Assembly: GCA_964637955.1 (NCBI GenBank) | Contig: CAZWXQ010000001.1 | Coordinates: forward strand, 292,849 to 356,848 | Length of the DNA: 64,000 nucleotides | Source of the DNA: an uncultured Gammaproteobacteria bacterium | Lineage (GTDB): Bacteria; Patescibacteriota; Microgenomatia; Levybacterales; UBA12049 | Direction of reading: 5' to 3' | Shown here: piece by piece, positions 30,867 through 60,627 of the stretch | How positions within the stretch are numbered: the stretch's first letter is position 1 | Layout: each line of letters begins with the position of its first letter | The notes under the pieces: model-generated | Told to the model about the DNA's origin: nothing | Databases searched by the model: none | The model's input: only the letters and a program-made list of their open reading frames with translations | Position numbers and translations under genes: made by a program

Positions 30867-31429
30867 AAATAGATAAGATAGTTTTGGTAAGTGGAAATCC
30901 AGGGAAAGCTCGTGAGATTCAAAGAATTTTAGATATTCCAATTGAAACTAGAGAAATAGATCTTGAAGAAATTCAAGAGATTGATCTTGAGAAAGTAGCG
31001 CTTAATAAATTAAATCAAGCATATTCCATTGTCAAAGCTCCCGTGATGATTGATGATATTTCTCTTGAAGTTGAAGTTTGGAATAAATTTCCAGGACCTT
31101 TAATTAAATGGCTCTTGAAGGCAGGAGATGGAGACGCAAAGATTCTTCTTAAAATGCTTGGAGATGAGGAAAATAGAAATGTAAAAGCAAGGCTTGCCAT
31201 TGGATTTCATGATGGAGAAAGCCAACATGTTTTTATCGGTGAAGTTGATGGCCAAATTGCACATGATATAAAAGGAAAAAATGGATTTGGATGGGATCCA
31301 ATTTTTATTCCTAATGGTGAAAGTGAGACTTTTGCGCAGATGGATCCAGAAAAGAAAGATAGTATCTCTCACAGGGGTCGTGCACTTAAAGAATTTAGAG
31401 ATTTCCTAAAAAAGAATTACGAGGTATAA
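30863..31429 (+). CDS. rdgB: non-canonical purine NTP pyrophosphatase (RdgB/Ham1)
   Basis: VSGNPGKAREIQ, GFGWDPIF, SHRGRAL motifs; start at the ATG at 30863 overlapping the lysS stop (ATGA). Confidence 0.85.
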   Translation: MKIDKIVLVSGNPGKAREIQRILDIPIETREIDLEEIQEIDLEKVALNKLNQAYSIVKAPVMIDDISLEVEVWNKFPGPLIKWLLKAGDGDAKILLKMLGDEENRNVKARLAIGFHDGESQHVFIGEVDGQIAHDIKGKNGFGWDPIFIPNGESETFAQMDPEKKDSISHRGRALKEFRDFLKKNYEV

Positions 31430-46183: not shown

Positions 46184-47278
46184 ATGCCAAAATCTAAAAA
46201 AGTTAAAAATCTTTCTTACCTCAAAATTGCAATAATTGCATTTCTGCTCTTATTTCTTCCGCTTTCTGTCTATGGTGTTAAGAATAGGACAGTCACAGAT
46301 TCGCATGCAAGTCAAATCTCATCGCCTTTAAATTCATATTCATTATCATTTACTCCAATACAAAACTTCTATCCTACAAGATCTGACAGTAGTCAGTATG
46401 TTTATGCAGCGCTATGGAAAGATAGTGATGGGAATAATGTAAAGCAATTTTCTAATCTTAATGCACAGTGGAAATTTGATCCAAGTTATTATTCAATTAA
46501 AAATACACATACAGAATATCATGATAATTGTCCTATTGTTAGGGCTGGATCACGTCCTTGCATCGTATTTATAGTTGAAGTAATCCCACAAAAAGCCGGT
46601 AATACAAGTATGCAATTAAACTTGACAGATAATCAAGGCGGAGAGGTGTGGAATGCAGAGCCGGCAACAATAGTTGATAATAGTGTTAATGCGCCAACTC
46701 AAAATCCAAACAATACAGGTATATCTACTTATTCACTCTCATTTGAGTCTGATCCAATTAAAAAGTGGTGGCCGATTGCTTCAAATCAATATGAAGATAT
46801 AACTGCAGCATTATGGAAAGATAGTGATGGTGCAAATGTAAGTAAATTTACAAATCTCCAGACTGAATGGCAATTTGATCCTAAGTATATTTCTGTTGCA
46901 TGGACTTCTAGTAAATATTTTGACACTTGTCCGGTTCCTACTGCCGGTGGAAGACCATGCATTTACTTTTATGCTTCAGTTCAGCCACAAATGCCAGGAA
47001 ATACAAATGTTCAGCTAAAAGTTAAAGATGGGAGCGGAGAAGAAGCCTGGAATGCTTATCCGTTAATAATTGAAAATATAAGTGATAATCCAAATCCTAC
47101 CATTAATCCAACTTCGGTTCCTGTCCCTGAAGGAAGTAATTATAAAAATCTTGAACAGAAGGTTAATTTACTCGAGCAACAACTTCAAGAACAAAATGTT
47201 AAAATTGATAACACTCAAAATACTTTGGATAAAATTTTAAGCTTCTTAAAAAAAATTTTTAGATTCTCGCCTCAATAA
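46184..47278 (+). CDS. secreted protein with two tandem ~110-aa paralogous domains and C-terminal coiled coil
   Basis: Signal/TM (IAIIAFLLLFLPLSVYG); repeat 1 YVYAALWKDSDGNNVKQF...CPIVRAGSRPCIVF; repeat 2 ITAALWKDSDGANVSKF...CPVPTAGGRPCIYF. Confidence 0.55.
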   Translation: MPKSKKVKNLSYLKIAIIAFLLLFLPLSVYGVKNRTVTDSHASQISSPLNSYSLSFTPIQNFYPTRSDSSQYVYAALWKDSDGNNVKQFSNLNAQWKFDPSYYSIKNTHTEYHDNCPIVRAGSRPCIVFIVEVIPQKAGNTSMQLNLTDNQGGEVWNAEPATIVDNSVNAPTQNPNNTGISTYSLSFESDPIKKWWPIASNQYEDITAALWKDSDGANVSKFTNLQTEWQFDPKYISVAWTSSKYFDTCPVPTAGGRPCIYFYASVQPQMPGNTNVQLKVKDGSGEEAWNAYPLIIENISDNPNPTINPTSVPVPEGSNYKNLEQKVNLLEQQLQEQNVKIDNTQNTLDKILSFLKKIFRFSPQ

Positions 47279-47324: not shown

Positions 47325-47993
47325 GTGTTTTATTTATTTATCTTCATAAGTGAATTCTTAATTCTTCTTTTTCTTTCTAGAATACTAAGTAGATCGATTT
47401 CTGCAGCTATTTATAAAATTACAAATAATGCTTATGGTTCTCTGAGGATTTTTCATTTTATCTTTTTGCCAGGAGTTATAGTTCACGAGTTGGCGCATTT
47501 AATAAGCGCAGAAGTTATGTTTGTAAAAACCCATGGACTTAGTTTGACACCAGTTAGAAATGGTGATCAGCTCACTATGGGAAGTGTCCAAATTGAAAAG
47601 ACAGATCCTATAAGGCGTGCGATAATAGGATTTGCTCCGGTTTTGGTAGGAATTGTTTTAATTGGAGCCGCGACTTTTTATCTTCTTTCAGATAAATCAC
47701 CTTTTGGTGACATTATAAATTATTTCCTTATTTTCATAATAGTTTTCGAAATTGGAAATACTATGTTTTCAAGCAGGAGAGACATTGAAGGCACCGTGGA
47801 GCTTTTAATAGTTTCTGTTTTAGTCATTGGATTACTTTTTGTTTTAGGAATAAGTTTTCAGCCTGTAATTGATTTTATAAACTCATCAAGTGTTCAATCC
47901 ATTTTGCTAAACGGAATTAAACTCCTTTGGATTCCAATTGCTGCAGATATTGTTATTATTTTACTTACTAAGTTTCTTGTACTCAGAAAATAA
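47325..47993 (+). CDS. polytopic membrane protein with HExxH motif (putative intramembrane metallopeptidase-like)
   Basis: FLPGVIVHELAHLISAEV within a predicted TM helix; 222 aa. Confidence 0.35.
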   Translation: MFYLFIFISEFLILLFLSRILSRSISAAIYKITNNAYGSLRIFHFIFLPGVIVHELAHLISAEVMFVKTHGLSLTPVRNGDQLTMGSVQIEKTDPIRRAIIGFAPVLVGIVLIGAATFYLLSDKSPFGDIINYFLIFIIVFEIGNTMFSSRRDIEGTVELLIVSVLVIGLLFVLGISFQPVIDFINSSSVQSILLNGIKLLWIPIAADIVIILLTKFLVLRK

Positions 47994-49713
47994 ATTTATA
48001 GATATAAGTATTATTGTATTTCTTAACTAATTTTAATTTTGAATTACTATTTAACTTTTCAATTATCTTTCCACCCTTATCAATTTTTTTATTATTAATA
48101 ATGAAGCCATCATTATGGAGCATATCGTATTGATCTTTATGAACAATAATATAGTCCAATCCTAATGATCTTAATTGAGTAATTGTTTTATCCGATGGAA
48201 ATGTTTCATCAAGGTTGTAAGCTAATTTTTGCCAAGGTTCTGGAGTGAATCCTCCACCACCATTCATGGTTCTTCTATAATTTATCGTTGAATAATAAAG
48301 TCTCCATAGTTCAATTGTCGCATAATCAGTCATGTTCCAATTATATATAGGCATCTCAAGATAAATAGAGTCTTTTGGAGTCGTAGAGAGGAAGTGGTGT
48401 TCTGGAGGGAAATCTTTTACTGTTGGCATTGGGATTAGTTTCATGGGGAATCTTAGTTCTGCAACGCAACCTAAGATTAATAGCGCATAAATTATAAACT
48501 TTTTACTTTTATCCTGTCCTTCAAGTATTTTTGTAAATACTATGCTTATTACTATTGCAGCTCCAATCATGAAAAGCATTTCCCATCTTGCTGAGTTTCG
48601 AAAGCCCTGAAAACCTGGAATCAGATAGTAAAAAAGTGCATATGGCAAAGGAATTATGGAGGGATTATGAATTGTTTGACGACCCATATGCAAAACAGGT
48701 CCAAGGCTTAATATAAAGCCTAGAATTGAAATTGATAGAAATGAATTTAGATTTACATTTTTTTTCTTAAGATTTTTAAATGCATAGATAAAACTAAAAA
48801 TAACTAAGATTGAAAATACTGCCCCTAAAAATCCTGGCTTAAATTCATTATTTTGTGAAAACCTATTTATCGGTAAAGAGTTTAAAGTAGTATCGAGTTT
48901 TGAAAAATCAGAAGAATAAAGCATATCTTCTGGTTGGATAGCAAAATGAACAGTATCTTTTAAAGTTCTTACATAACCAAATTCCTTTGAGATTCGAAAA
49001 TAAGGAATCATAATTGGAATAATTGCCGACATGAAAAGTATAAAAATTAGAATATTCTTTTTTGAAACTGCTTTTAAAGTTTCTTTTTTATCAAACAGCC
49101 AGTTAAAGAAAAATATTATTAAATAAGAAATGAGAATAAAATAACCAGCGAGGAAATTGTTATACGTTTGAAGTACTAAAAACATAAAAGAAATTATGAG
49201 GTGTTTAGTTTTTTTACTCTTCATGAAATTGATGAAAAATAAAAGAGAAAGAGGAGTAAGTACTATAAAAAGCATCTGGAGGTGGGCATAGAAACTAAGA
49301 TATGCTGGGGAAAAAATTACTAAAATTCCAGCTAAGATTGATGCGAAGAAATCCTTTGTAATTCTGTAAGCCAATAAATAAAGTGAGAAGCCTGTTAAAA
49401 CTATTCCGGAAATTACGATAAAGTTATTTGTAATTATTGGCTCTTTAGTAATAAGATATGGAATCATAGAAAAAAGAGCGGTAATTATATTTGGATCAGA
49501 TGAAGCAGGTCCTATTTGATAGGGATAAAAAATATTTGTTGTAAAAATATTTTGGATATTACCAGTTAGTACTGATTGAATAATCCATGTATGAATCCAA
49601 GTGTAGATAAAATTATCTCCGTAACCCGTCGTTAGAGTAGTCAGATGAAATGCCCACGGAAAAGTAATAAAAATTCCAGAGATTAAAAATATTAAAAAAG
49701 CTAATAGTTTCAC
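47983..49713 (-). CDS. large polytopic membrane protein, GT-C-fold glycosyltransferase-like (ArnT/PMT/YfhO-like)
   Basis: 576 aa, more than 10 TM helices with C-terminal soluble domain; assignment by architecture only. Confidence 0.4.
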   Translation of the reverse strand: MKLLAFLIFLISGIFITFPWAFHLTTLTTGYGDNFIYTWIHTWIIQSVLTGNIQNIFTTNIFYPYQIGPASSDPNIITALFSMIPYLITKEPIITNNFIVISGIVLTGFSLYLLAYRITKDFFASILAGILVIFSPAYLSFYAHLQMLFIVLTPLSLLFFINFMKSKKTKHLIISFMFLVLQTYNNFLAGYFILISYLIIFFFNWLFDKKETLKAVSKKNILIFILFMSAIIPIMIPYFRISKEFGYVRTLKDTVHFAIQPEDMLYSSDFSKLDTTLNSLPINRFSQNNEFKPGFLGAVFSILVIFSFIYAFKNLKKKNVNLNSFLSISILGFILSLGPVLHMGRQTIHNPSIIPLPYALFYYLIPGFQGFRNSARWEMLFMIGAAIVISIVFTKILEGQDKSKKFIIYALLILGCVAELRFPMKLIPMPTVKDFPPEHHFLSTTPKDSIYLEMPIYNWNMTDYATIELWRLYYSTINYRRTMNGGGGFTPEPWQKLAYNLDETFPSDKTITQLRSLGLDYIIVHKDQYDMLHNDGFIINNKKIDKGGKIIEKLNSNSKLKLVKKYNNTYIYKFIF

Positions 49714-49757: not shown

Positions 49758-50852
49758 TTAGCTTGAGTATTTTTGATAAAGATCATTAATCATTCTTAAT
49801 TCATTGTAATTTCGTGTCTGATCTTTAAGAGTTACGTTTTCAAGCTGGTCTGTTACTGCTTGAGATTCTATGAAGTTATCGAGTACGCTTTTTTTCCATC
49901 CAGCTTCAATCTCTCCTATACTTAATCCAGAAATTTCTTCCATACTTTGAATAAAATTTTGTCGATTTACATTTCCGACCCATCTCTTGAAATTGTTAAC
50001 CCCAAATGTATCTATAAAGTACTTTATAAAAGATCCACCTTTTAAATAATCTGAATCATTTGGGGAGGTATCGTATCTGTCTAAAATATTATCTGTTTCG
50101 CTCGACAAGCTAAAGCAATTTGCTATTGAAAAATCAGTACGTCCTTTTTGGTTTATCATTTTTATTAGTTGGTCATCGCTTATCTTTTTCCATTCGCCCA
50201 TGAAGTCGGTGAATTTATCTCTTGCATGATTGATCATGTGGAGCCTTAAGTAGTCATGAGCATCTTTTCCTGACCCAAAATGATCAAAAAATGTAGCTAA
50301 GCCTTCATGTAGAAATGGAATGAAATAGGCTTCCTTGGAGAATAATGCAGGAGCAAGAATTCCATGTCCAATTGCCTCATGCAAACTTGTTGTATAGGCC
50401 GCAGGAGTCAATTCTGAATCAGGTTTTTTTCTAGTGGTTGTTTTACTGAAGCGAGCATGACTCCAGCTGCTCGAAGTAGGGCTTTCGCGGCCATACGTGT
50501 GTAAGCCATTAATTAATCCATTTCGGTCTCGTCTGGAAACTCGAACTACCTGGAAAGTGTCAGGCATTTCAATTTGGAATAAATCTTTAGCTATTTTTAA
50601 TCCTCCTTCAAGATAATATGCCATGTCTTCCGGACCTTGAAGCGTTGGAGTATCAAAATCCTCGTAGATTTTATTATCCTGAAAAATTACTATAAAGTGG
50701 GGTGACTGCGCATAATGAATATCTGGATGTTTTATGCGATCAAGATCTAATCCGTCAATAATTTTCTGTCTCTCTGGTATGTGGGTTGGTTTTACAGATA
50801 CTTCAGGTGAACCCTCGTAGGTTACATTTTTTTGTGCATCACCAGATTCCAT
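49758..50852 (-). CDS. hypothetical protein (364 aa)
   Basis: Clean ORF; HEAIGHG segment is not a canonical HExxH. Confidence 0.45.
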   Translation of the reverse strand: MESGDAQKNVTYEGSPEVSVKPTHIPERQKIIDGLDLDRIKHPDIHYAQSPHFIVIFQDNKIYEDFDTPTLQGPEDMAYYLEGGLKIAKDLFQIEMPDTFQVVRVSRRDRNGLINGLHTYGRESPTSSSWSHARFSKTTTRKKPDSELTPAAYTTSLHEAIGHGILAPALFSKEAYFIPFLHEGLATFFDHFGSGKDAHDYLRLHMINHARDKFTDFMGEWKKISDDQLIKMINQKGRTDFSIANCFSLSSETDNILDRYDTSPNDSDYLKGGSFIKYFIDTFGVNNFKRWVGNVNRQNFIQSMEEISGLSIGEIEAGWKKSVLDNFIESQAVTDQLENVTLKDQTRNYNELRMINDLYQKYSS

Positions 50853-50967: not shown

Positions 50968-52650
50968 ATGTTACTGCCCGATAGTCAGATTTTGGAGCTT
51001 CTAAAACAGTCTGGTTTGGTTGATCAGAAGACAATGCAGGATGTTGTGGTTTCTGCCGCTAATGCAAGAATTCCTCTACAAGAAGCTGTGATTGAAAAAA
51101 ATGTTATTACAGACGATAAACTTGGTCAGCTTATCGCAAACTTCATAAAGTATCCTTTTGTAGTTCTGGATAAAAGTCAGATTCCCGAGGAAGTGTTTCG
51201 AATAGTTCCTGAAAGAATCGCTAGAAAGCATAGGATTGTCGCTTTTGCCAAAGATGCTACTGGAGTAAAAATGGCAATGGCTGATCCTGTCCACATAAAA
51301 CTTGCTGATTCTATTTCTAAAAAAACCCAAAGAAAAGTAACTGTGTTTATGGCTACAGAGAGAAACATAGAGAACGTGCTCCAGCTTTATAGAAAAAATC
51401 TCCAAACAACTTTTGATGATCTTTTGCAGGAAGAAATTACTAGAACAAATACTACCATGGATGATGCCCCAATCATTAAGATTGTTGATCTACTTATCGC
51501 TTATGCATATCGCGAAAAGGCATCAGATATTCATATTGAGCCTGAAGAAAAAAATTCATTGGTTAGATTCCGAACAGATGGAATTTTACATGACGTGCTT
51601 TATGTAGATAAAAAATTGCACGATAGAATTATTACTAGAATTAAAGTTTTGTCGCGTCTTAGAACAGATGAGCACATGAGTGCTCAGGATGGAAAACTCC
51701 GAACTATAGTTGATGAAGACAGTTTGGATATTCGTGTTTCCATAATTCCAGTTACTGAAGGAGAGAAAGGGGTTCTTAGACTTTTATCATCGCAATTTAG
51801 GCAGTATTCTCTTCATGATCTTGGGATGAATGATAAAGATCTTATGAAAGTAAATAATGGAGTAAATAAATCTTATGGCATGATTCTTTCAACCGGTCCA
51901 ACTGGTTCTGGAAAGACAACTTCAATTTATTCGATTTTAAATATCCTAAATACTAGAGATAGGAATATTACGACCATTGAGGACCCCGTTGAGTACAGGA
52001 TGAAGGGCGTAAATCAGATTCAGGTAAATGAAAAAGCAAATCTTACTTTTGCGAATGGATTAAGGTCTGTTCTTCGTCAGGATCCCAATGTTATTTTTGT
52101 GGGTGAAATCAGAGATGGTGAAACAGCAGGGATTGCGGTAAATGCTGCGCTCACGGGCCATTTGGTGGTTTCGACAGTTCATACAAATGATGCAGCGACC
52201 ACGCTTCCTAGATTAGTGGACATGAAAGTAGAGCCATTTCTTGTGGCATCAACTATTAATGTAATTATCGCTCAAAGACTTGTGAGAAAAATTTGTGAGT
52301 CCTGCAAGATTCCAGTTGTTATAAAAAGATCTGAGTTAATTAAGGAAATTCCTGAAGTTACTATCGCGAAGCATTTTGGTCTTGGGGAGGATCTAAAAGG
52401 ATTTGAAGGCAAGGGTTGTAAGATTTGTCATGCTACTGGTTATTCTGGTCGTATTGGTATTTTTGAAATAATTTCTATGTCTGAAAAAATAAAATCCCTT
52501 ATCGCTCAAAAGAAAGACTCAAATGAAATAAAAAAAGAAGCAATAGCAGAAGGAATGACTACAATGCTTGAAGATGGAATGGATAAAGCAGCAAAAGGCT
52601 TAACAACGGTTAAGGAAGTGTTTAGAGCTACAAAAGCTGAAGCAACTTAA
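50968..52650 (+). CDS. pilB: type IV pilus assembly ATPase PilB (GspE family)
   Basis: N-terminal GSPII_E_N-like domain, Walker A GPTGSGKTT, Asp/His boxes, tetracysteine motif CESCK...CKICHATG. Confidence 0.92.
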   Translation: MLLPDSQILELLKQSGLVDQKTMQDVVVSAANARIPLQEAVIEKNVITDDKLGQLIANFIKYPFVVLDKSQIPEEVFRIVPERIARKHRIVAFAKDATGVKMAMADPVHIKLADSISKKTQRKVTVFMATERNIENVLQLYRKNLQTTFDDLLQEEITRTNTTMDDAPIIKIVDLLIAYAYREKASDIHIEPEEKNSLVRFRTDGILHDVLYVDKKLHDRIITRIKVLSRLRTDEHMSAQDGKLRTIVDEDSLDIRVSIIPVTEGEKGVLRLLSSQFRQYSLHDLGMNDKDLMKVNNGVNKSYGMILSTGPTGSGKTTSIYSILNILNTRDRNITTIEDPVEYRMKGVNQIQVNEKANLTFANGLRSVLRQDPNVIFVGEIRDGETAGIAVNAALTGHLVVSTVHTNDAATTLPRLVDMKVEPFLVASTINVIIAQRLVRKICESCKIPVVIKRSELIKEIPEVTIAKHFGLGEDLKGFEGKGCKICHATGYSGRIGIFEIISMSEKIKSLIAQKKDSNEIKKEAIAEGMTTMLEDGMDKAAKGLTTVKEVFRATKAEAT

Positions 52651-52653
52651 AAT

Positions 52654-53709
52654 ATGTTTAAGAGGTCAAAAATTACTTTAAAAAACTCAGAGAAATTAAA
52701 TTTACTTAGTAATTTATCTACAATGATTTCTTCTGGTATTCCTATTCTTGAAACAGTTGATTCTCTGCTCGAAGATTCAAAAGGCGGCACACAAAAAGTT
52801 CTCCAAATAATACGCGAAGATATGCTTCAAGGAAACCATCTTTACACTTCGTTTACAAAGTTTCCTGATATTTTCGATAAAGTTACAGTAAATGTAATAA
52901 GAGCTTCAGAGGAGGCTGGAACGCTTGATGTTACTTTGAAAGATATTAGAGATCAGCTCGAAAAAGAAATTGAATTCCAGGATAAGCTTAAGTCCGCGAT
53001 GATTTATCCTATTTTTATTGTAATTGTATTCTTTGGCGTTATGGTGATGATGCTCGTTGTAGTAATGCCTAAAATTTCGACAGTATTCTCAAGACTTAAA
53101 GTAGACCTACCTCTCCCAACTCGCATTATGATAGCAATGTCAGATATAGTTACGCAGTATACAATTCCTCTATTGGCTGGAACCTTGGTGTTGGTATTTT
53201 TCATGATAATTCTTTATCGAGCACAGAAAAAAAGAATATTAGGCATGGTTTATAAATTGCCATTGATTTCAACATTGGTTAAGGAAATTGATTTAGCACA
53301 TTTTTCGAGAAGTATGTTCTTGCTTTTATCTTCAGGAATTACTATTACAAACGCTCTTGAATTATCTCAGGAGGTTGTAATGAGAAAAGATATTGCCAAA
53401 GCGATTGCTCACGCAAAAGAAACTGTTCTTTCGGGAAAAAATTTATCTCAAGGATTTAGAGACGAAAAAAAGATTTTTTCTGGAATAATTATAAAACTAG
53501 TAGAAGCAGGTGAAAAAACAGGAACTTTAGACAAGTCTTTGGCTGATGTATCGAAGCAGATGGATTATAAAGTTAGCAACACGCTCACGACACTAACCGC
53601 AATGCTTGAGCCGGTAATGCTTGTTGCTGTAGGAATTTTAGTGGGTGGAATGATGCTAGCAATAATCGCTCCTATTTATGGATTAATTGGAAAAGTTGGA
53701 GCAAGGTAA
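52654..53709 (+). CDS. pilC: type IV pilus platform protein PilC (GspF family)
   Basis: 351 aa; duplicated GspF domains, 3 TM helices. Confidence 0.88.
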   Translation: MFKRSKITLKNSEKLNLLSNLSTMISSGIPILETVDSLLEDSKGGTQKVLQIIREDMLQGNHLYTSFTKFPDIFDKVTVNVIRASEEAGTLDVTLKDIRDQLEKEIEFQDKLKSAMIYPIFIVIVFFGVMVMMLVVVMPKISTVFSRLKVDLPLPTRIMIAMSDIVTQYTIPLLAGTLVLVFFMIILYRAQKKRILGMVYKLPLISTLVKEIDLAHFSRSMFLLLSSGITITNALELSQEVVMRKDIAKAIAHAKETVLSGKNLSQGFRDEKKIFSGIIIKLVEAGEKTGTLDKSLADVSKQMDYKVSNTLTTLTAMLEPVMLVAVGILVGGMMLAIIAPIYGLIGKVGAR

Positions 53710-53710
53710 A

Positions 53711-54289
53711 ATGGCAAATCAAAAAATTTGGTTAAAGAAAGATTCGAATAAAGGTTTTATACAGCACCAATTAAATAGGTATTGGTTTAGATCATTGAAT
53801 CAAAAAGCAAAATATGATGCTGGATTTACTTTAATAGAGCTTTTGGTGGTCATTACGATTAGTTCAATTTTGTTCGCGTTAATCGCTTTTAATTTGGCTG
53901 GAATCCAAGATAGAACTGCTCATCGTGCGGGTGTAAATACAATTATTTCTGATTTAAAGCTCCAACAAATAAAAGCAATGACTGGCTCAACTGAAGGTAG
54001 AAGTGCGAGCGATAATTATGGAATTTATTTTATGACAGATCGATACGTATTGTTTCATGGAAATTCCTATAGCGCATCAGAGCCAACAAATTTTACAATC
54101 GAACTGCCTGAAAACATTCGAATACAAAGCACGGCTTTCCCTGGAAATTCTGTATTGTTTTCGAAAGTAAGCGGAGAAGTTGCAGGTTTTACTTCTGGTA
54201 ATAACACAATAGTAATAAGAGAAACAAATTTAAATAGTGATAAGACTATAACTATTAATAGATATGGTGTAATTACATCTGTAAATTAA
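53711..54289 (+). CDS. prepilin-type N-terminal cleavage/methylation domain protein (minor pilin/pseudopilin)
   Basis: Class III signal ...AG|FTLIELLVVITISSIL with Glu+5; unusually long (about 38 aa) leader. Confidence 0.7.
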   Translation: MANQKIWLKKDSNKGFIQHQLNRYWFRSLNQKAKYDAGFTLIELLVVITISSILFALIAFNLAGIQDRTAHRAGVNTIISDLKLQQIKAMTGSTEGRSASDNYGIYFMTDRYVLFHGNSYSASEPTNFTIELPENIRIQSTAFPGNSVLFSKVSGEVAGFTSGNNTIVIRETNLNSDKTITINRYGVITSVN

Positions 54290-57271
54290 ATGAAAATATT
54301 TAATTTTTTAAAAAGCAAAAAGGGTAATTCTATAGTTGAGATTCTACTCGTGATAGGACTTGCAGCAATTCTTATTCCGGCAATATTAACTGGCATTGTT
54401 GCTACGAGAGAGGGGAGAGCTCAACATGATCAAAGGGTTGAGGCAGTTTCTATGTTAACAAATGCTCAAGAGGCTGTTAAAAGTATTGCTTTAAGGAATT
54501 GGGCGCTTGTTGCTACAAATGGAACTTTTCATCCCACGATTTCTGGAAACGCATGGATTCTTTCAAATGGATCCATAACCCAAAATGGATATACAACAAG
54601 TGTTGTAGTAAGTGATGTCTATAGAGACGGTACTGGTGCAGTTGTATCAAGTGGGGGCACTCTTGATCCAGCTACAAAACAAGTTACAACCACTATTTCC
54701 TGGACGACGCCGTTTAATTCTCAGGTATCAGCTATCTCATATTTTTCTCGTTATAAAAATCAAGTGTATACAGAAACAACTGCTGCGCAGTTTACTGCCG
54801 GTACGCTAATAAATACGCAGGTAACAAATGTTTCTGGTGGTGAAGTTAAATTAACTAATAATAATAAAGCTAAATGGTGTTCTCCTGCTTTTAATTCGGC
54901 TACGATTGATTTGCCTGATGGACCACCTGTAGCAGTTGCAGCTACCGCGAGTGCTACTTCTGTAAATACACCAAATGACGCTTACGTGGCAGTCTCTCCG
55001 CTTACTACAAATTCAATTAAGATGGTACATGTAAATGTAACTGCTAATACAGATCCGCCAACGACTTCTCAAAGAGGTAAATTTACATTAAATTCATCTG
55101 AATACAGTAATCCTTCATATGTTCCTTCTGGACTTGATCTAACTAATACTTTTAAAACCAATGATGTGAAGTATTATAAATCAGCTGGCGGCAACACTTA
55201 CGCTCTCATTGCAACAGATTTACCGACCAAAGAAGTTATTGCTGTTTGGGTTAACGACGGAGATTCCAGTAACGATAATAATACATCTGGAGAATTCCAA
55301 GATCCCGTAAATAAAATTTATAAGTATAAAACATTCTTTAATACAAGAATATTTAACTCAGCAGCAGGTTTGGATACCGGTTTTATTAATCCATCTGGTA
55401 ATTCTTCCGAAACTTCAAGCGCAGGAGATAATAATGGGTTTCAGTCAAATCCTACAAGAGCTTATTCAGATAATAATTCATTTGCAGTGGATACAGATAG
55501 TGGTAGTGGTACAGGAACTAGTTGTACAGGAGCTGATAAGGATAAGCATCGTTTTTATAATTACAGCCTACCACTTGCATCTGGTGTAACTATAAATGGA
55601 ATTGAATTACGCCTAGATGCAAGAGTTGATAGCGTGACAGGTTCACCTTTTGAATGTGTACAGCTTTCATGGGATGGAGGTACTTCCTGGACAACTGCAA
55701 AGAGTACATCAAATCTTACTACTGGTGAAGTTACATATACTTTGGGTGGTTCTGCTGATACATGGGGACGTACTTGGACTACGTCAAATCTGTCTAATTC
55801 TAATTTTCGTGTTCGTGTAGTTAATGTTGCAAGTAATACATCTCGTGATTTTTCTCTGGACTATGTTGGAGTGAAAGTTTATTACAGCGGAGTTTCAGCT
55901 ACAAATGATCAGGCGCCGTTTGATTATGGAGCAAAATCTATAACAGTGCTTGGAGATAAAGGCTATGTAGCTTCTGGAGGATATTTATATACTTTTGATT
56001 TAAGTAATATTGACAGTAAATCCTCATCTGCAGAGCTTGATCAGGTCGGATGTAGAATTGAAATTCAGGGATATGATTGCAAGCCTGGAGCTTCAGCGAG
56101 TAGTTTAAAGTACGATATAGGAGAGACTGGAACTTCATGGAGCGATGTAGGATCACCTGCACATAATGACTGTTCTGATGGGGGAAATATTGAGTTAAAT
56201 GCCGACAATCATATCACAGGTGTACAGGTGGGAGGAAGTAATTATATATATGTTGCAGTTGGAGCTGGATATGATTCCGAGCTAAACATAGTAAATGCAA
56301 CAAACGTACCAGATTTAGCTTCAGCTCCGGCTATAAATAGTAATAGTTGCGGAAGATCAACTGGAGGTCATGCTGGGTGGAAATTGGTTGGTTCACTTGA
56401 TTTTAATTCTAGACCAGGCACAGAAGAAGCTGCGAATTCTGTATATGTCAAATCTGATGGGACGCGGGCATATATATCTTCAAATGGAGGAATTGATGCA
56501 AATAGTGATGGTACGCCAGACAGTAAACAGTTCTATGTAATTAACACTACAAATAAAACTTCTCCTGCATTCTTAGCAGGGGCCCCAGGATCTCCTACAT
56601 ATGGTCCAACGAGTGGGTTCTACTATGGAACTGGAGCTAATGCAGATTTATTTCCAAGACGCTCCCTTACGGTTCTTAACGGAGATAGGGTAGTTCTTGT
56701 GGGAAGTGATGGAAAAAGTAATGTTGATGATGCGCAGGAATATCAGGTATTAAATAGCGAGGTAGAAACAGCACCTGCATATTGTGCGGGACTTAATTTC
56801 GATCAAGGCTTTAACGACTTAACCTCAGTCACCGAAGCTGATACAGATAATTATGTTTACATGGTAGCGAACACCAACTTAAATGAGCTTAAGATTATTG
56901 AGGGGGGTCCTGATAATGCCCTTTATGTTGCCTCAGGTACATTTGAATCGCAAACTTTTGACGCATCTGCTGGGAATATGTTTAATAGATTTTTTGCGAC
57001 GAGCACAGTTCCGTCAAATACAACATTAACTTATCAGGTTGCAATTGCCGATGCTGTAAGTGGAAGTTGTAGTGGAGCATCTTATAACTACATCGGTCCT
57101 GATGGAACAAATAATTCATTTTTTTCATCGGCCTCAGAGTTGCCTAAAAATGACGATGGCTCTGGATTTGAGAACCCAGGTAGATGCATGAGATATAAAG
57201 TTTATATGTCATCAGTAGATCAACAGCAGACTCCAGTGCTTCAAGATTTTGGAGTAAATTATTCATACTAA
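54290..57271 (+). CDS. giant (993 aa) prepilin-like protein, putative pilus-associated adhesin
   Basis: N-terminus KKG|NSIVEILLVIGLAAIL (Gly-1, Glu+5, hydrophobic helix) followed by about 950 aa of Thr/Ser/Gly/Asn-rich beta-type sequence. Confidence 0.7.
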   Translation: MKIFNFLKSKKGNSIVEILLVIGLAAILIPAILTGIVATREGRAQHDQRVEAVSMLTNAQEAVKSIALRNWALVATNGTFHPTISGNAWILSNGSITQNGYTTSVVVSDVYRDGTGAVVSSGGTLDPATKQVTTTISWTTPFNSQVSAISYFSRYKNQVYTETTAAQFTAGTLINTQVTNVSGGEVKLTNNNKAKWCSPAFNSATIDLPDGPPVAVAATASATSVNTPNDAYVAVSPLTTNSIKMVHVNVTANTDPPTTSQRGKFTLNSSEYSNPSYVPSGLDLTNTFKTNDVKYYKSAGGNTYALIATDLPTKEVIAVWVNDGDSSNDNNTSGEFQDPVNKIYKYKTFFNTRIFNSAAGLDTGFINPSGNSSETSSAGDNNGFQSNPTRAYSDNNSFAVDTDSGSGTGTSCTGADKDKHRFYNYSLPLASGVTINGIELRLDARVDSVTGSPFECVQLSWDGGTSWTTAKSTSNLTTGEVTYTLGGSADTWGRTWTTSNLSNSNFRVRVVNVASNTSRDFSLDYVGVKVYYSGVSATNDQAPFDYGAKSITVLGDKGYVASGGYLYTFDLSNIDSKSSSAELDQVGCRIEIQGYDCKPGASASSLKYDIGETGTSWSDVGSPAHNDCSDGGNIELNADNHITGVQVGGSNYIYVAVGAGYDSELNIVNATNVPDLASAPAINSNSCGRSTGGHAGWKLVGSLDFNSRPGTEEAANSVYVKSDGTRAYISSNGGIDANSDGTPDSKQFYVINTTNKTSPAFLAGAPGSPTYGPTSGFYYGTGANADLFPRRSLTVLNGDRVVLVGSDGKSNVDDAQEYQVLNSEVETAPAYCAGLNFDQGFNDLTSVTEADTDNYVYMVANTNLNELKIIEGGPDNALYVASGTFESQTFDASAGNMFNRFFATSTVPSNTTLTYQVAIADAVSGSCSGASYNYIGPDGTNNSFFSSASELPKNDDGSGFENPGRCMRYKVYMSSVDQQQTPVLQDFGVNYSY

Positions 57272-57279
57272 GATTTTTT

Positions 57280-57801
57280 ATGAAAATTAATTTTTTGACA
57301 CATATAAGAATTAGAAGAAAATCGTCGGGTTTTACATTAATTGAGCTTCTTATTTATATGGGATTATTTTCAATATTAACTACGATTACTCTTCAATTAT
57401 TTGCGACAATTTTTGATGCTGAGACTGAGGCGGAAGCAGTTTCCTCGATAACAAGTGACAGTAAATTTATTATGAATAGATTTACATATGATCTTAATCG
57501 GTCTTCAAGTGTTACGACGCCTGTTAGCTTAGGGACTCAAAGTGCCACACTAACTATGGTTATAAATTCACAAAATCTAAGATATAGTCTAGACAGTGGA
57601 AATCTTAAATTAGATAACCTCACAACTGGCACTTCTGATAATTTAAATACAAATGAGACTACGGTTTCAAACTTATCTTTCATAAGACTTGATGGGGGAG
57701 GAAATGATGCTGTTCAAATTACATTTACTCTTACGTCAGTCGCAACAGATACTTCAGGTAAGCAAATTAAAACGTATACCACATCAGGAGGAATTAGATA
57801 A
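57280..57801 (+). CDS. minor pilin (prepilin N-terminal domain)
   Basis: SSG|FTLIELLIYMGLFSIL. Confidence 0.7.
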   Translation: MKINFLTHIRIRRKSSGFTLIELLIYMGLFSILTTITLQLFATIFDAETEAEAVSSITSDSKFIMNRFTYDLNRSSSVTTPVSLGTQSATLTMVINSQNLRYSLDSGNLKLDNLTTGTSDNLNTNETTVSNLSFIRLDGGGNDAVQITFTLTSVATDTSGKQIKTYTTSGGIR

Positions 57802-58172
57802 TGCAAAAAGAAAGTCAAAAAGGTCAATCGTTAATAACGATTTTATTTTTTGTGGTAATTTCAATTACTATTATTACTGCAATATCATCTATTATTTTAA
57901 ATAGCACTTCGACTGGTTCTAGCATTGAGCAAGGTAGTATTGCATATTATAGTGCTGAGTCAGGAGCCCAAAATGCAATATTAAGACTACTTAGGGATCC
58001 AAATTATACAGGGGAAACCATGAGTCTTAATGATGGTACTGTGACAATAGTTGTTAGCGGAGGTGTAATCACGTCAACTGCTCATGTGGCAAATTCCATT
58101 AGGAAAATAGAAGTCCAAACAGGATACAATAATAATATTCTTACAATTTCATCATGGAAAGAGATAAATTAA
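57801..58172 (+). CDS. pilin-like/pseudopilin-like membrane-anchored protein (degenerate prepilin motif)
   Basis: KG|QSLITILFFVVISITII, Thr instead of Glu at +5; 123 aa. Confidence 0.4.
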   Translation: MQKESQKGQSLITILFFVVISITIITAISSIILNSTSTGSSIEQGSIAYYSAESGAQNAILRLLRDPNYTGETMSLNDGTVTIVVSGGVITSTAHVANSIRKIEVQTGYNNNILTISSWKEIN

Positions 58173-58990
58173 AAAAAGAAATTTCTAAAAAACCAAGCGG
58201 AATTTTCTTCGTAGATGGAGCTAGGGCATTTTACTTTGAGCAAAGTTTAAGTGCTCCAATTCCGCTTGAGATTACACTAGATATTTTTAATGATCTAGAG
58301 CTAATTAATAGGAAAAAGCTGGAAACATTAATTAAAAATTTTATAATTTCCCAAAAGCTTGGGCCTAAGAATATAATCCTTCTTCTATCAGCACAGTTAA
58401 CTTTTGACAAGGATTTTCCTCGTGGATCAATTGAGGTTGAGAAAAATATAGAAGAATTTCTAGAGCTTGTTCCTTTCGAGCAAGTAATTAGCAAAAAAGC
58501 TTTATTTGCAGGGAGAACTAAAGTAATCGCTGCGAATAAGGAATTTTGTGACGCAATAAAAGCTACGTTTATAAATTCAGGTTTTATAGTAAGTGGGATT
58601 TATCCGCTGTCTCTTTGTCTTGAGCTTGCTCCAGAACTTCAATCAAGTATGGATTTAAATTTGGTCATTAATAAGGTTCCTGACTTAAAAGATTTTAATC
58701 TTATGCCAACGCCTGAAATGGCAATAAATTCTCCAGATAAAGAAAAGCCTGACAAAATTAGACTTTACTTAATGATTGGGTTAATGTTAATTCTTGGTAT
58801 AGTTATGGTATTTCTTTTATACAGAAATATTTTGGCCCCCGAAAAATCCAAGAAATCAAATATTCTTCCGACAGTAATGCCAGTAGTTGAAAAAATTGAA
58901 AAAGAAATTCCTGCGACATCATCAGCGGATTTTGAATCTTCAGAATCTGCAGAGCTTTCTGTTACAAAAATTCCAACACAAATTCGCTAA
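58154..58990 (+). CDS. pilus assembly protein, PilM/PilN-like (bitopic)
   Basis: About 190-aa cytoplasmic domain, single TM (LYLMIGLMLILGIVMVFLLY), short acidic extracytoplasmic tail; assignment by position/topology. Confidence 0.3.
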   Translation: MERDKLKKEISKKPSGIFFVDGARAFYFEQSLSAPIPLEITLDIFNDLELINRKKLETLIKNFIISQKLGPKNIILLLSAQLTFDKDFPRGSIEVEKNIEEFLELVPFEQVISKKALFAGRTKVIAANKEFCDAIKATFINSGFIVSGIYPLSLCLELAPELQSSMDLNLVINKVPDLKDFNLMPTPEMAINSPDKEKPDKIRLYLMIGLMLILGIVMVFLLYRNILAPEKSKKSNILPTVMPVVEKIEKEIPATSSADFESSESAELSVTKIPTQIR

Positions 58991-59020: not shown

Positions 59021-59050
59021 TTGACAATTAGTTTAAGTCATGGCAATAAT
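59021..59050 (+). promoter_or_regulatory. candidate promoter for major pilin gene (TTGACA-18-AATAAT)
   Basis: TTGACA 59021-59026; AATAAT 59045-59050; start codon 10 nt downstream (short leader, no SD). Confidence 0.3.
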
Positions 59051-59059
59051 AGATTATAA

Positions 59060-59536
59060 ATGAAAAACATAAGTGCAAATAATTCAAAAAGAGGTTTCAC
59101 ATTAATAGAGCTTTTAGTAGTAATTGGTATTCTCGCTATTCTTCTTTCAATTGTTCTTATTGCTATTAATCCAGCAAGACAATTTGGACAAGCAAATGAT
59201 ACAAAAAGAACAAGTGCAGTAACGCAAATCCTTAATGCAATCGGTGCATATCAAGCAAGTAACAAGGGAAATCTACCTGCAGAGGTATCAGGTTTAACAG
59301 TTGGCACACCGGAATTACTTAATGATACTAATTTTCCAAATCTTTGTGCAGAATTAGTTCCAGATTATATCCCAGCTCTTCCTACAGATCCATCACTTAA
59401 CACTCCTGATATCGAATTGGCTGATTGCGGAGCATACAATACTGGATACACGATTACATTAAAAGCAAACAATAGAGTTACTATTACAGCTCCTCAAACA
59501 GAAGTAGCAGCAACTCCAATCGAGATCACAAGATAA
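59060..59536 (+). CDS. type IV major pilin (PilA-like)
   Basis: 158 aa; short leader MKNISANNSKRG|FTLIELLVVIGILAILLSIVLIAINP, Cys pair near C-terminus (C...C) for a disulfide loop. Confidence 0.8.
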   Translation: MKNISANNSKRGFTLIELLVVIGILAILLSIVLIAINPARQFGQANDTKRTSAVTQILNAIGAYQASNKGNLPAEVSGLTVGTPELLNDTNFPNLCAELVPDYIPALPTDPSLNTPDIELADCGAYNTGYTITLKANNRVTITAPQTEVAATPIEITR

Positions 59537-59568: not shown

Positions 59569-60627
59569 TTAATCACTTATATTAAAATAGTGAATTGGTA
59601 TATCAAGGAAAGGATTGAAAGCAATAATAAATCTGTCAGGAGTTAATCCCAACTGTGATTTAAGATTTTTAAAGTAAGCAACTTGTGTCTCAATCATTGC
59701 AAGATCAACAGAGCTGATGTCTGAATTCCTAATTATTTCGGGTACAGAAACACCAATCATTCCACTTTCCATTCTGCTTGTCTGATCATGGACAGCTAAT
59801 ATCATTTCTTCTATTACCGGAAGTCTATCTTTTCCTTTAGGCATGCCTGTTTTAACTAAAGTTTCTGCATGGGCGGTCATTATTTGTTCTTCGTGTTCTG
59901 TCTCAGCTGTTGAGCTTGGAATTTCCAAAAAATCCATTCGAGAAACTTTTTCTCTAATAATTAATCCCGCTTGAGTTTGATCCATTTCTTCATCTCCGGT
60001 TACTAGAAGTTTATTTTCTCTAAGAAATTCAATAAGATTTTCATTTCGTATTAAAAAAATTCCATCACTTGACTTTTCCATTATTTTTTTTCTGATTTCT
60101 AAGGCTTTTTTTTCAATTCGAGGGTCTGCTACTAGAGCTATATAGAAAGTATCTACTTTATGTTCAGGATTCTCAGCTCTTAGCCTTAAGGTGCTTAGTC
60201 CTCTATCGGTTACTCCTACTCCAACATTTTCTGCAATTAATACTTTTCCTTCAGGAAGTTTCGCCAATCTTTTTTCGATCATATCATGATAATGATAAGA
60301 GAAAGGAATAGACCATTCTGTATCCCAGTATGATCTTGGTCCTATGTCATATTTTTCTTGTGTATCGACCAGAGCATCATCAAAAAATATGGTATCTGCA
60401 GATTTTTGGCCATTAGTTAGAGAAGGAAGTGCAGCGCCAAATTGAGTTACAACAGTAGTTTTGCCACCCCTGGGTGGGCCAAATATCTCTATCAATTCAA
60501 TTTCATTTTCACTAATTTCAAATATGATTCTCTCTAATATACTTTTACCATTACCTTCAACTATGTTTCTTAAAATTTCCGTAGCGGGTTCAGGCGGTGG
60601 AAGCGGTTCTGTAAAAATTTCATGCAT
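59569..60627 (-). CDS. P-loop NTPase-domain hypothetical protein
   Basis: GPPRGGKTTVV Walker A at about aa 50; 352 aa; 8-bp overlap with the upstream His-phosphatase gene. Confidence 0.45.
   Translation of the reverse strand: MHEIFTEPLPPPEPATEILRNIVEGNGKSILERIIFEISENEIELIEIFGPPRGGKTTVVTQFGAALPSLTNGQKSADTIFFDDALVDTQEKYDIGPRSYWDTEWSIPFSYHYHDMIEKRLAKLPEGKVLIAENVGVGVTDRGLSTLRLRAENPEHKVDTFYIALVADPRIEKKALEIRKKIMEKSSDGIFLIRNENLIEFLRENKLLVTGDEEMDQTQAGLIIREKVSRMDFLEIPSSTAETEHEEQIMTAHAETLVKTGMPKGKDRLPVIEEMILAVHDQTSRMESGMIGVSVPEIIRNSDISSVDLAMIETQVAYFKNLKSQLGLTPDRFIIAFNPFLDIPIHYFNISD

Follow-up and report, generated by a model that had tools for sequence, protein, structure and literature searches.

The means by which uncultured CPR bacteria locate other cells and stay attached to them are, to our knowledge, still poorly understood, and experimental evidence exists for Saccharibacteria only. 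A 64,000-nucleotide stretch of Microgenomatia DNA (hereafter, the window) contains a type IV pilus operon in which one gene encodes a 993-aa protein that begins like a pilin. What would so large a pilin do? Modular pilins, taken here as proteins that combine an N-terminal pilin module with at least one further structural module whose occurrence is not restricted to pilus biology (Raynaud et al. 2021, PMC8179133), are widespread, CPR bacteria included, and their bulky modules confine them to the pilus tip (PMC8179133). Efficient host binding by the saccharibacterium Nanosynbacter lyticus TM7x requires PilX2, a minor pilin that bears a propeller (PMC11623550). Here, we ask whether the giant pilin of the window belongs with such proteins, and what its head might bind.

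A giant pilin encoded by a single reading frame

The gene is a single unbroken ORF, beginning with ATG, as judged from the ORF listing and its translation, and the 993-aa product is identical to a protein already on record (P0001). A preliminary description of this ORF had named a frameshifted fusion of two genes as one way in which it might prove artefactual. Such a fusion is excluded, because more than 120 homologues are colinear with the protein over 96–100% of its length (more than 100 counted as both colinear and of the same length); in addition, the same single ORF is present at 43 genome loci. Full-length relatives comprise more than 120 cluster representatives, all at 55–74% identity and drawn from the Microgenomatia (Levy-, Woese-, Roizman- and Shapirobacteria). 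Many of the MAG records that carry the operon are titled 'uncultured Gammaproteobacteria', which we read as a placeholder label; on at least two contigs so titled, there are proteins that fall into one cluster, at ≥90% identity, with a protein that NCBI names as Levybacteria.

The N-terminus, MKIFNFLKSKKG/NSIVEILLVIGLAAILIPAILTG, consists of a basic 12-residue leader with terminal Gly, followed by Glu at +5 and ~20 hydrophobic residues. This prepilin signature, recognized at the outset, is conserved beyond chance: all of 60 orthologues taken from other genomes have Gly before the helix and Glu at +5, and a 41-sequence family alignment has E17 in every sequence and G12 in nearly every one. Glu17 (+5) lies in the N-terminal half of helix alpha-1, which is hydrophobic. 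At +1, the window protein has Asn rather than Phe or Met, the methylated residue that is usual in pilins and not a strict requirement; the 60 orthologues have Gln (52), His (3), Ala (2) or others (3). Pfam N_methyl (PF07963) matches 25 of 41 family members (best E 8.1e-06). The window protein itself has no Pfam match at E≤1, N_methyl included, and matches neither TIGR02532 nor an NCBIfam pilin model. Sequence searches of the PDB with full-length and N-terminal profiles returned nothing beyond weak matches of the N-terminal profile to type IV pilin N-terminal helices (geopilin, E 0.024; PilA, E 0.074).

The AlphaFold2 (AF2) model predicts a pilin fold up to residue 162, with a long alpha-1 helix and an antiparallel beta-sheet of 5–6 strands (78–85, 88–93, 101–112, 124–138, 144–153 and 157–162). 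Beyond this pilin module (residues 1–162), the model places a propeller, a jelly roll and a beta-sandwich (Table 1), and the protein would thus be a modular pilin as defined above.

The remainder of the protein had been characterized as beta-rich, low-complexity sequence full of Thr, Ser, Asn and Gly. Its composition bears out the last point (S 11.6%, T 10.0%, G 9.4%, N 8.7%), and the AF2 model is indeed almost all beta past residue 70. It is not low-complexity sequence, however. Shannon entropy is 3.3–3.8 bits in each 40-residue block, full-length identity is high, and discrete domains are predicted with confidence; on entropy, conservation and pLDDT, a low-complexity or disordered tail is ruled out. 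About 150 columns are invariant in the 41-sequence alignment, among them 10 Cys, which would fit an extracellular protein.

Table 1. Features of the giant pilin gene and of the surrounding pilus operon, in coordinates of the window
Feature	Position	Strand	Basis
Whole gene, candidate modular minor pilin	54290..57271	+	stop codon 57269-57271
Leader peptide MKIFNFLKSKKG, residues 1-12	54290..54325	+	read directly; predicted prepilin-peptidase cut after Gly12
Predicted pilin alpha-1 helix, residues 13-69	54326..54496	+	AF2 DSSP helices 13-37, 40-69
Predicted pilin head, residues 70-162, antiparallel beta-sheet against helix	54497..54775	+	AF2, pLDDT 70-91
Linker between pilin head and propeller, residues 163-200		+	
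Predicted beta-propeller, first part, ~residues 201-356, ~blades 1-2	54890..55357	+	
Predicted inserted jelly-roll module, residues 357-536, CBM/lectin-like fold	55358..55897	+	
Predicted beta-propeller, second part, ~residues 537-876, ~blades 3-7	55898..56917	+	AF2 model, LVIVD matches in relatives
Predicted C-terminal beta-sandwich, residues 877-993, no known family	56918..57268	+	AF2 strands 882-992
pilB/gspE-type assembly ATPase	50968..52650	+	Pfam T2SSE 4.5e-125 + MshEN; syntenic 55/70 loci
pilC/gspF-type platform protein	52654..53709	+	Pfam T2SSF 3.6e-48; syntenic 58/70 loci
Minor pilin, GspH/ComGD-like (G/FTLIE)	53687..54289	+	N_methyl 3e-08; 69/70 loci, Glu5 67/69
Minor pilin (G/FTLIE), weakly ComGE/ComGF/GspJ-like	57280..57801	+	N_methyl 5.5e-08; 65/70 loci, Glu5 61/64
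123-aa minor pilin without Glu5 (KG/QSLIT), predicted GspK/PilX-type cap	57801..58172	+	read directly
278-aa single-pass membrane protein, no known family	58154..58990	+	no Pfam match; syntenic 55/70 loci
Major pilin candidate, 158 aa (RG/FTLIELLVV)	59060..59536	+	N_methyl 1.5e-09, GspG-like 5.9e-09; 66/70 loci

The giant gene occupies a fixed place in a pilus operon

Genes of the operon are ordered pilB, pilC, minor pilin, giant pilin, minor pilin, Glu5-less cap pilin, membrane protein and major pilin, and each element is present in 55–69 of 70 related loci. For the minor pilin upstream of the giant gene, translation probably starts farther downstream than the listed TTG; the protein matches the NCBIfam models for ComGD (1.3e-07) and GspH (1e-05) below their cut-offs; NCBIfam matches of the minor pilin downstream are weak. 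In the 123-aa pilin, Glu is absent from +5 in all 62 orthologues, and 51 of the 62 have Gln at +1. Lack of Glu5 is a hallmark of GspK/PilX-type tip subunits; the match to the GspK model itself reaches only E 0.13. The 278-aa membrane protein, an orthologue of which (locus L081) weakly matches LytR_C, is a candidate alignment or assembly component of the pilus.

These genes resemble those of the GspH-I-J-K tip complex, in that four minor pilins are encoded, one of them without Glu5 as in GspK, and the order H-like, giant, J-like, K-like parallels that of gspH-I-J-K. The giant pilin, like its 60 orthologues, keeps Glu5 and so is not the GspK equivalent; going by gene order alone, it would hold the 'GspI position'.

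Within the 64-kb window, no prepilin peptidase gene (Peptidase_A24/PilD) was found. One candidate (30764-31429), picked out by a GxGDxK regular expression, is Ham1, and four ORFs with multiple transmembrane segments belong to the ABC-2 permease, DUF1295 or unknown families. BLASTP likewise found no second T2SSE-type ATPase in the window that could be PilT. At three related loci (L053, L070 and L033), extra genes lie between the giant pilin gene and the next minor pilin gene; some of their products have a Sec-type hydrophobic N-terminus, and none is a paralogue of the giant pilin. Scans for promoters and terminators gave counts no higher than in shuffled controls and hence no evidence on operon boundaries; the promoter-like sequence that scored best in this region (11/12, a consensus match only) lies at 59021-59050, just upstream of the major pilin candidate.

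The head is modelled as a seven-bladed propeller and a C-terminal sandwich

It had been anticipated that the region beyond the N-terminus might hold a beta-helix, lectin or Ig fold. This was close to the mark: the lectin part has its counterpart in a predicted jelly roll of lectin/CBM type, and the rest is modelled as a seven-bladed propeller and a beta-sandwich. The best structural matches of the propeller are, by far, WD40-type scaffolds that are non-catalytic. Comparison of the whole model with the PDB by Foldseek gave generic propeller proteins only (TM <0.2), and nothing informative beyond 'propeller'. LVIVD repeats (PF08309) are recognized in 2 of 41 relatives (best E 5.5e-4) and in P0161, a 654-aa positional orthologue (E 1.5e-9), and have no Pfam match in the window protein. 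Nor does the HMM for the C-terminal propeller of PilY1/PilC (PF05567, IPR008707) match the giant pilin. The C-terminal beta-sandwich has no Pfam or NCBIfam match. The 654-aa orthologue shares the pilin head region at 44% identity and keeps the C-terminal region, with residues 718–992 aligning at 37% identity.

The jelly-roll module is a cassette

According to the AF2 model, the jelly-roll module, which contains the Asp-box-like motif LSWDGGTSW, is inserted in the loop joining propeller blades 2 and 3. The module is a cassette. Among 61 orthologues, it is present in 43 and exactly missing in 17; the remaining one has at the same loop, between Pro/Thr linkers, a CBM_4_9-like domain (Pfam E 1.4e-4, below cut-off). 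At 56–63% identity, the same module also forms the C-terminus of secreted multi-domain proteins in Chloroflexota, Nitrospirota and Acidobacteriota, where its partners include PKD, PA14, Ig-like and CBM_3 domains, M14 and C39-like peptidases and CHAP. CBMs show the same behaviour.

In terms of sequence families, the module stands apart. Neither Pfam nor NCBIfam has a model for it; the module of the window protein matches no CBM model in Pfam, and an NCBIfam search with it returned nothing relevant. A set of 37 module sequences yielded one match to F5_F8_type_C (E 0.036) and weak matches to Reelin_subrepeat-B (13/37, best E 0.0023) and GEVED (9/37, best E 0.003). The module is accordingly no member of a CBM sequence family, and its likeness to jelly-roll CBMs (CBM32, CBM15, CBM4/6/22) and F-type lectins is one of predicted fold, of the galactose-binding-domain-like type, at only ~10% sequence identity. 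Jelly rolls bind proteins too. Cross-phylum conservation of ~57–60% is far above that usual for CBMs. Widespread, unusually conserved and present in several phyla, this extracellular domain merits definition as a family.

The GC content of the giant pilin ORF (0.39, versus 0.33 in the window) had hinted at recent horizontal gain of the module. Such a gain is unsupported: GC3 of the module (0.16) is as low as the lowest values in neighbouring genes (0.16–0.28), and the excess GC is thus probably due to amino-acid composition.

Proposed role of the giant pilin

A pilin of this size had been put forward as a candidate tip adhesin, and the idea gains from the conserved motif, the place of the gene among prepilin genes in a pilus operon, and the prediction of a pilin module followed by ~830 residues of binding-type domains. 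We think it probable, on balance, that the gene product is a modular minor pilin from a Levybacteria-like member of the Microgenomatia (CPR), located at the tip of a type IV pilus and binding a carbohydrate-containing ligand. In this scheme, the preprotein would enter the membrane via its N-terminal hydrophobic helix, and prepilin peptidase would cut behind Gly12 to release the 12-residue leader. Residues 13 to ~162, the pilin module, would then assemble with the three small minor pilins encoded alongside (GspH-like, weakly GspJ/ComGF-like, and the Glu5-less GspK/PilX-like cap) into a priming complex. PilB and PilC would polymerize the major pilin below this complex, leaving it at the pilus tip; the ~830 remaining residues would be too bulky for the filament shaft, which argues for display at the tip. 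There, the head may recognize a ligand that contains carbohydrate and belongs to another surface, for example a cell-wall glycan of a host bacterium or an environmental polysaccharide; the jelly-roll module would provide an additional binding site, both optional and exchangeable. A part in host-cell recognition, also suggested at the outset, would be conceivable on this scheme; we know of no cultured member of the Microgenomatia, so 'host' is itself an assumption.

Most likely, the giant pilin extends a known kind of protein, the modular pilins, and is not a new kind. In Streptococcus sanguinis, PilB carries a vWA module and PilC a concanavalin-A-like lectin module (PMC8179133, PMC9934059). 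Like these, the giant pilin combines a small N-terminal pilin module with bulky binding modules that would restrict it to the tip, and it is encoded with minor pilins in the pilus operon of an organism without an outer membrane. By analogy with PilC, a lectin-type module would point to glycan binding. No sequence relationship to PilB or PilC was detected, however, and the head of the giant pilin is much larger (~830 residues, three domains including a propeller), with one binding module nested within another domain rather than appended at the end. Because these domains lack database signatures, most of the family would escape surveys of modular pilins that rely on InterPro.

The pilus of TM7x offers a second comparison, made here from its published description. 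PilX1 has a lectin-like jelly roll and PilX2 a C-terminal seven-bladed propeller (PMC11623550), and both, like the giant pilin, belong to the minor pilins of CPR bacteria and have a non-canonical signal peptide. The two folds reside in separate proteins in TM7x, whereas in the giant pilin they are predicted in one. The PilX2 propeller is described as having RCC1 repeats; in the giant-pilin family no RCC1 was detected, and LVIVD repeats are found in few relatives. According to the authors of the TM7x study, conservation of pilin heads across the CPR is poor (PMC11623550), while the head of the giant pilin is 55–74% identical across several Microgenomatia orders.

Within the family, the head is in fact more conserved (65–67% identity) than the pilin part (45–49%), which is unlike a rapidly diversifying determinant of host specificity. 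Judged from the sequences, this pattern would suit either a very widespread ligand or a conserved role in mechanics or biogenesis. The latter leads to a serious, if unlikely, alternative: the giant pilin may be a pilin-fused functional analogue of PilY1, in which the propeller primes or stabilizes the pilus, counters retraction or senses surfaces, and adhesion is secondary or absent. PilY1/PilC of diderm type IVa pili, implicated in adhesion, is also a large seven-bladed propeller protein found at the tip with four core minor pilins (PMC8179133, PMC11623550). The propeller being the most conserved part, its occurrence at the same operon position in essentially all related loci, as for a core machine part, and the evolutionary dispensability of the module, absent in 17 of 61 orthologues, all favour such a factor.

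If the ligand were instead very widespread, the glycan-binding tip adhesin could take a more specific form, which we offer as speculation and consider rather doubtful. The Microgenomatia tip would present a conserved propeller 'socket', one loop of which takes interchangeable glycan-binding cassettes. The usual cassette would be the undescribed 175-residue jelly-roll family, kept at ~57–60% identity from CPR bacteria to Chloroflexota, Nitrospirota and Acidobacteriota since it recognizes a near-universal glycan of bacterial surfaces or matrices. Whether a pilin has the cassette, lacks it or carries another in its place would then decide the cells or substrates to which these ultrasmall bacteria attach.

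Other roles for the head fare less well. An enzyme displayed at the tip, with the propeller (with or without the module) acting as a glycoside hydrolase, lyase or other cell-wall-active catalyst and the jelly roll as a substrate-targeting CBM, is improbable: the closest structures are the non-catalytic scaffolds mentioned above, no catalytic family was found by Pfam or NCBIfam among 41 relatives, and no active-site motif is identifiable in the giant pilin. We regard as highly improbable that a large minor pilin captures DNA here, as the receptor of a competence (Com-type) pilus. ComZ of Thermus is a large minor pilin proposed to capture DNA, CPR bacteria rely on scavenged nucleotides, dprA lies ~6 kb downstream of the operon in one Roizmanbacteria relative, and the best sub-threshold NCBIfam matches of the neighbouring pilins are ComGC, ComGD, ComGE and ComGF. 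These Com matches, however, are far below cut-offs and limited to the common N-terminal helix, the predicted propeller and CBM-type folds are not known DNA-binding folds, and the TM7x pilus that carries the propeller pilin made no contribution to competence (PMC11623550). Finally, we give very little credence to a membrane-tethered surface adhesin that is never polymerized, its N-terminus being an uncleaved signal-anchor: the failure of the N_methyl model, the atypical +1 residue and the lack of PilD in the window would agree with this, but a plain anchor hardly explains why all 60 orthologues have a Glu within the transmembrane helix, at a spacing of exactly five residues from the conserved Gly, the gene sits among prepilin genes in conserved order, and the adjoining cap pilin has the same unusual Gln at +1.

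As a putative glycan-binding tip pilin, the giant-pilin family gives a large class, the Microgenomatia, a candidate equivalent of the propeller-bearing host-binding pilin of Saccharibacteria. The candidate is well defined: a single highly conserved gene always placed alike in the pilus operon, whose product is modelled with confidence and includes a 175-residue module that can be separated from the rest. Members of the family form a natural length series of ~650, ~800 and ~990 aa, plus the variant with a different CBM-like module, and this series is a ready comparison for what the module adds.

The giant pilin and its operon

The 993-aa giant pilin is encoded by a single uninterrupted reading frame, whose ATG abuts the stop codon of the preceding pilin gene (..aaattaaATG). 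Its N-terminus, MKIFNFLKSKKG/NSIVEILLVIGLAAILIPAILTG (the slash separates positions -1 and +1), comprises a 12-residue basic leader, Gly at -1 and Glu at +5, followed by a hydrophobic helix, bearing out the prepilin-type signature reported in the preliminary description. The same description called the remainder low-complexity sequence, which does not hold: despite the richness of the protein in Ser (11.6%), Thr (10.0%), Gly (9.4%) and Asn (8.7%), entropy is 3.3-3.8 bits in all 40-residue blocks.

When 5.8 billion proteins were searched, 741 matched the giant pilin. The best 120 of these are nearly all 955-1035 aa long, 55-74% identical to the query and colinear across 96-100% of it; one is an 810-aa partial match. 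In an alignment of 41 family members, mean column identity is 61% and about 150 columns are invariant, Glu17 and ten Cys among them. This degree of conservation, along with the full-length colinear relatives, leads us to dismiss a frameshifted fusion of two genes, the artifact for which a check had been proposed. In its source databases, the family goes by no more specific name than "type II secretion system protein", "PulG" or "hypothetical protein".

The giant pilin gene sits within a type IV pilus (T2SS-like) operon, the genes of which adjoin or overlap one another (Table). The neighbors occur in the same order in related loci from other genomes, each in 55-69 of 70. Neither a prepilin peptidase nor a PilT-type ATPase was found within the 64-kb window. 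The region's best sigma-70-like match (TTGACA-18-AATAAT, 11/12) lies 10 nt before the major pilin gene, a hint that this gene may have a strong promoter of its own; overall, counts of promoter-like matches show no excess over shuffled controls.

Table. Features of the pilus operon, its flanks and other parts of the window
Feature	Coordinates	Strand	Remarks
Class I lysyl-tRNA synthetase fusion	28623-30866	+	
Membrane-anchored protein with tandem units	46184-47278	+	364 aa
Multi-pass membrane protein	47983-49713	-	576 aa
ORF divergent beside pilB	49758-50852	-	364 aa
PilB/GspE ATPase	50968-52650	+	T2SSE 4.5e-125
PilC/GspF platform	52654-53709	+	T2SSF 3.6e-48
200-aa prepilin	53687-54289	+	N_methyl; GspH/ComGD matches below threshold
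Giant pilin	54290-57271	+	993 codons + stop
Module within giant pilin gene	55358-55897		~175 aa
173-aa prepilin	57280-57801	+	N_methyl
123-aa pilin-like protein (predicted cap pilin)	57801-58172	+	KG/QSLIT; no Glu5
278-aa single-pass membrane protein	58154-58990	+	no known family
Sigma-70-like match	59021-59050	+	
158-aa major-pilin candidate	59060-59536	+	N_methyl; GspG-like match
P-loop-like protein	59569-60627	-	352 aa

In T2SS and T4aP, the tip complex is capped by a GspK/PilX-type subunit, a minor pilin recognizable by its lack of Glu5. Glu5 is absent from all 62 orthologues of the cap pilin, 51 of which have Gln at +1; it is present in all 60 giant pilin orthologues, with Gln at +1 in 52. 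In the operon's remaining three pilins, +1 is Phe and Glu5 is kept nearly throughout. By this mark, the locus would have four minor pilins, including the giant pilin. Within the operon, only the giant pilin and the cap pilin have Gln/Asn instead of Phe at +1. This may reflect adjacent positions at the tip, or another N-terminal modification such as pyroglutamate formation.

Predicted architecture

We built an AlphaFold2 model of the giant pilin from the 41-sequence alignment (mean pLDDT 79.6). The pilin part is predicted to form a long helix (residues 13-69) and then a five- to six-stranded sheet extending to about residue 162, beyond which nearly all structure is beta. The model contains a seven-bladed propeller (about residues 201-356 and 537-876) interrupted by a jelly-roll domain (about 357-536), here termed the module. 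By our own assignment of blades, read off the DSSP strand list, the module would be flanked by strands 343-350, the last of blade 2, and 548-554, the first of blade 3. Residues 877-993 are predicted to form an additional beta-sandwich of no known family.

The module as an independent, exchangeable unit

An exhaustive phmmer search, run against 1.84 billion representatives, gave 3803 matches, 577 of them at E<=1e-30. It showed that residues 358-534 act independently of the rest: this stretch alone is matched, at 55-65% identity, by many proteins of 246-3109 aa. The module has no model in NCBIfam 20.0 or in Pfam-A (a copy that includes models up to 2025); some members give only weak Reelin_subrepeat-B and GEVED matches. 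Its features include an Asp-box-like LSWDGGTSW and four invariant Trp (W461, W467, W492 and W496); D380, D401, D418, H420, R509, D520 and D524 are invariant as well. Outside CPR, hundreds of secreted proteins carry it, from Chloroflexota, Nitrospirota, Acidobacteriota, Actinomycetota and other groups, at 56-65% identity to the CPR copy. For hosts in Chloroflexota, Nitrospirota and Acidobacteriota, identity is 56-63%; one Nitrospirota carrier, of the Manganitrophaceae, is encoded on a 4.6-Mb chromosome. There, the module usually forms the very C-terminus of a large secreted protein, often following Pro/Thr linkers and sometimes in tandem, and its partners include PKD, PA14, Ig-like, fn3, M14 carboxypeptidase, CHAP, C39-like peptidase, PGAP1-like esterase and CBM_3 domains. 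Examples beyond the window occur in fetched loci L072 and L074-L080 and in database proteins P0286-P0401. In another database protein, P0155 (3109 aa), 11 stretches match the query, the best being the module core (residues 422-535).

Orthologues were classed by aligning the query with the corresponding ORFs of the fetched loci (BLASTP). The module is present in 43 (893-1162 aa, mostly 969-1028 aa) and absent from 17 (793-834 aa if complete; two are incomplete), which align on either side and lack query residues ~356-538. Clean junctions read ...KYKTFFNTRIFNS-module-NDQAPFDYGA... in the module-bearing form and ...KYWTFFNTKQYQGDxRSTPNQDQAPFGYG... in the module-less form. One protein, the 1073-aa orthologue in locus L068, has a different insert of 237 residues at the same point. 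Flanked by Pro/Thr linkers, this insert resembles CBM_4_9 (Pfam E 1.4e-4; 22.7 bits, just below the 25.9-bit cut-off). In still other genomes, the identical operon position is occupied by a 654-aa family with a smaller LVIVD-type propeller, which is 44% identical to the giant pilin in the pilin module and 37% identical in the C-terminal third; this yields a series of positional orthologues of ~650, ~800 and ~990 aa.

Rough neighbor-joining trees, which carry no support values, suggest that the modules carried by pilins group in a single clade with one stray outsider, and that module-bearing and module-less forms intermingle at six or more places in the scaffold tree. This combination implies either repeated precise loss of the module or its transfer between alleles. 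GC3 of the module (0.16) falls close to the lower limit of the values for neighboring genes, and hence gives no sign of recent foreign origin.

Proposed function

The giant pilin is most likely a modular minor pilin. The sequence features, operon, predicted folds and comparative pattern computed here support its earlier designation as a candidate tip adhesin, and from them we infer cleavage, tip location and ligand as follows. The pilin module would be processed at Gly12 and would join the three small minor pilins in a priming complex that ends up at the pilus tip. The head, of ~90 kDa, would be exposed there, since it is too big for the filament shaft. Raynaud et al. made the same argument for PilB of S. 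sanguinis, by modeling its crystal structure into the filament (PMC8179133). The fold types, the CBM-like replacement in L068 and the behavior of the module elsewhere point to a carbohydrate-containing ligand.

The main rival explanation is that the head has a conserved mechanical or biogenesis role like that of PilY1. Propeller and module are 65-67% identical, versus 45-49% for the helix and pilin head. Conservation is thus higher in the head than in the pilin module, which argues against a fast-evolving determinant of host specificity, and favors either a very widespread ligand or a PilY1-type role. Less likely roles are those of an enzymatic propeller, the DNA receptor of a Com-type pilus or a plain membrane anchor. 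It is unlikely, in our estimation, that an exchangeable glycan-recognition cassette sets attachment specificity, with the undescribed domain recognizing a near-universal glycan.

As a modular minor pilin, the giant pilin can be likened in action to the S. sanguinis tip adhesins PilB and PilC, to PilX1 and PilX2 of the saccharibacterium TM7x and, functionally, to PilY1. It fails the sequence test for PilY1, as it does that for GspK. PilX2 is a minor pilin whose signal peptide is non-canonical and which bears a seven-bladed propeller; deleting PilX2 halves host binding. PilX1 has a lectin-like jelly roll, and host binding by TM7x is sugar-sensitive (PMC11623550). This pair, the only experimental precedent in CPR, fits the reading of the giant pilin as a tip binder. 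Full-text searches on Patescibacteria or Microgenomates pilins brought up the TM7x study, along with a T4SS preprint and a perspective article, and nothing else. The giant pilin falls within the definition of modular pilins, which are already widespread, CPR included (PMC8179133), and hence is not a new kind of system. What appears to be new is a ~1000-aa pilin family conserved in several orders of Microgenomatia; a binding module placed inside a loop of the propeller rather than at a terminus; its cassette-like presence, absence or replacement; and the module itself, as a strongly conserved cross-phylum extracellular domain lacking a Pfam or NCBIfam model in the releases searched.

Other observations

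Dozens of MAG records (TPA_asm, SRP.../binchicken isolates) with the CPR-type operon give the organism as "uncultured Gammaproteobacteria" or "Pseudomonadales" in their titles (e.g., L003, L004, L006-L009). In at least two such contigs, proteins cluster at >=90% identity with a protein named Levybacteria by NCBI; these organism titles therefore look like placeholders or errors.

Several further genes of the window are also worth recording. The one just upstream of the operon encodes a protein anchored in the membrane at its N-terminus, with two tandem ~115-aa units (..SLSF..ALWKDSDG.NV..F.NL...W.FDP.Y......Y.D.CP...AG.RPC..) and a C-terminal coiled-coil-like tail; it has no significant Pfam family. 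The ORF divergent beside pilB has an HExxH motif (LHEAIGHG) and no Pfam match, and could encode an unclassified metallopeptidase. Two further flanking proteins, one with ~10 transmembrane segments and the other with a P-loop-like GPPRGGKTT, look conserved and belong to no Pfam family. Finally, the B3_4 domain normally resides in the beta subunit of phenylalanyl-tRNA synthetase; in the window, a C-terminal B3_4 domain (5.3e-22) is fused to a class I lysyl-tRNA synthetase (tRNA-synt_1f, 7e-88).
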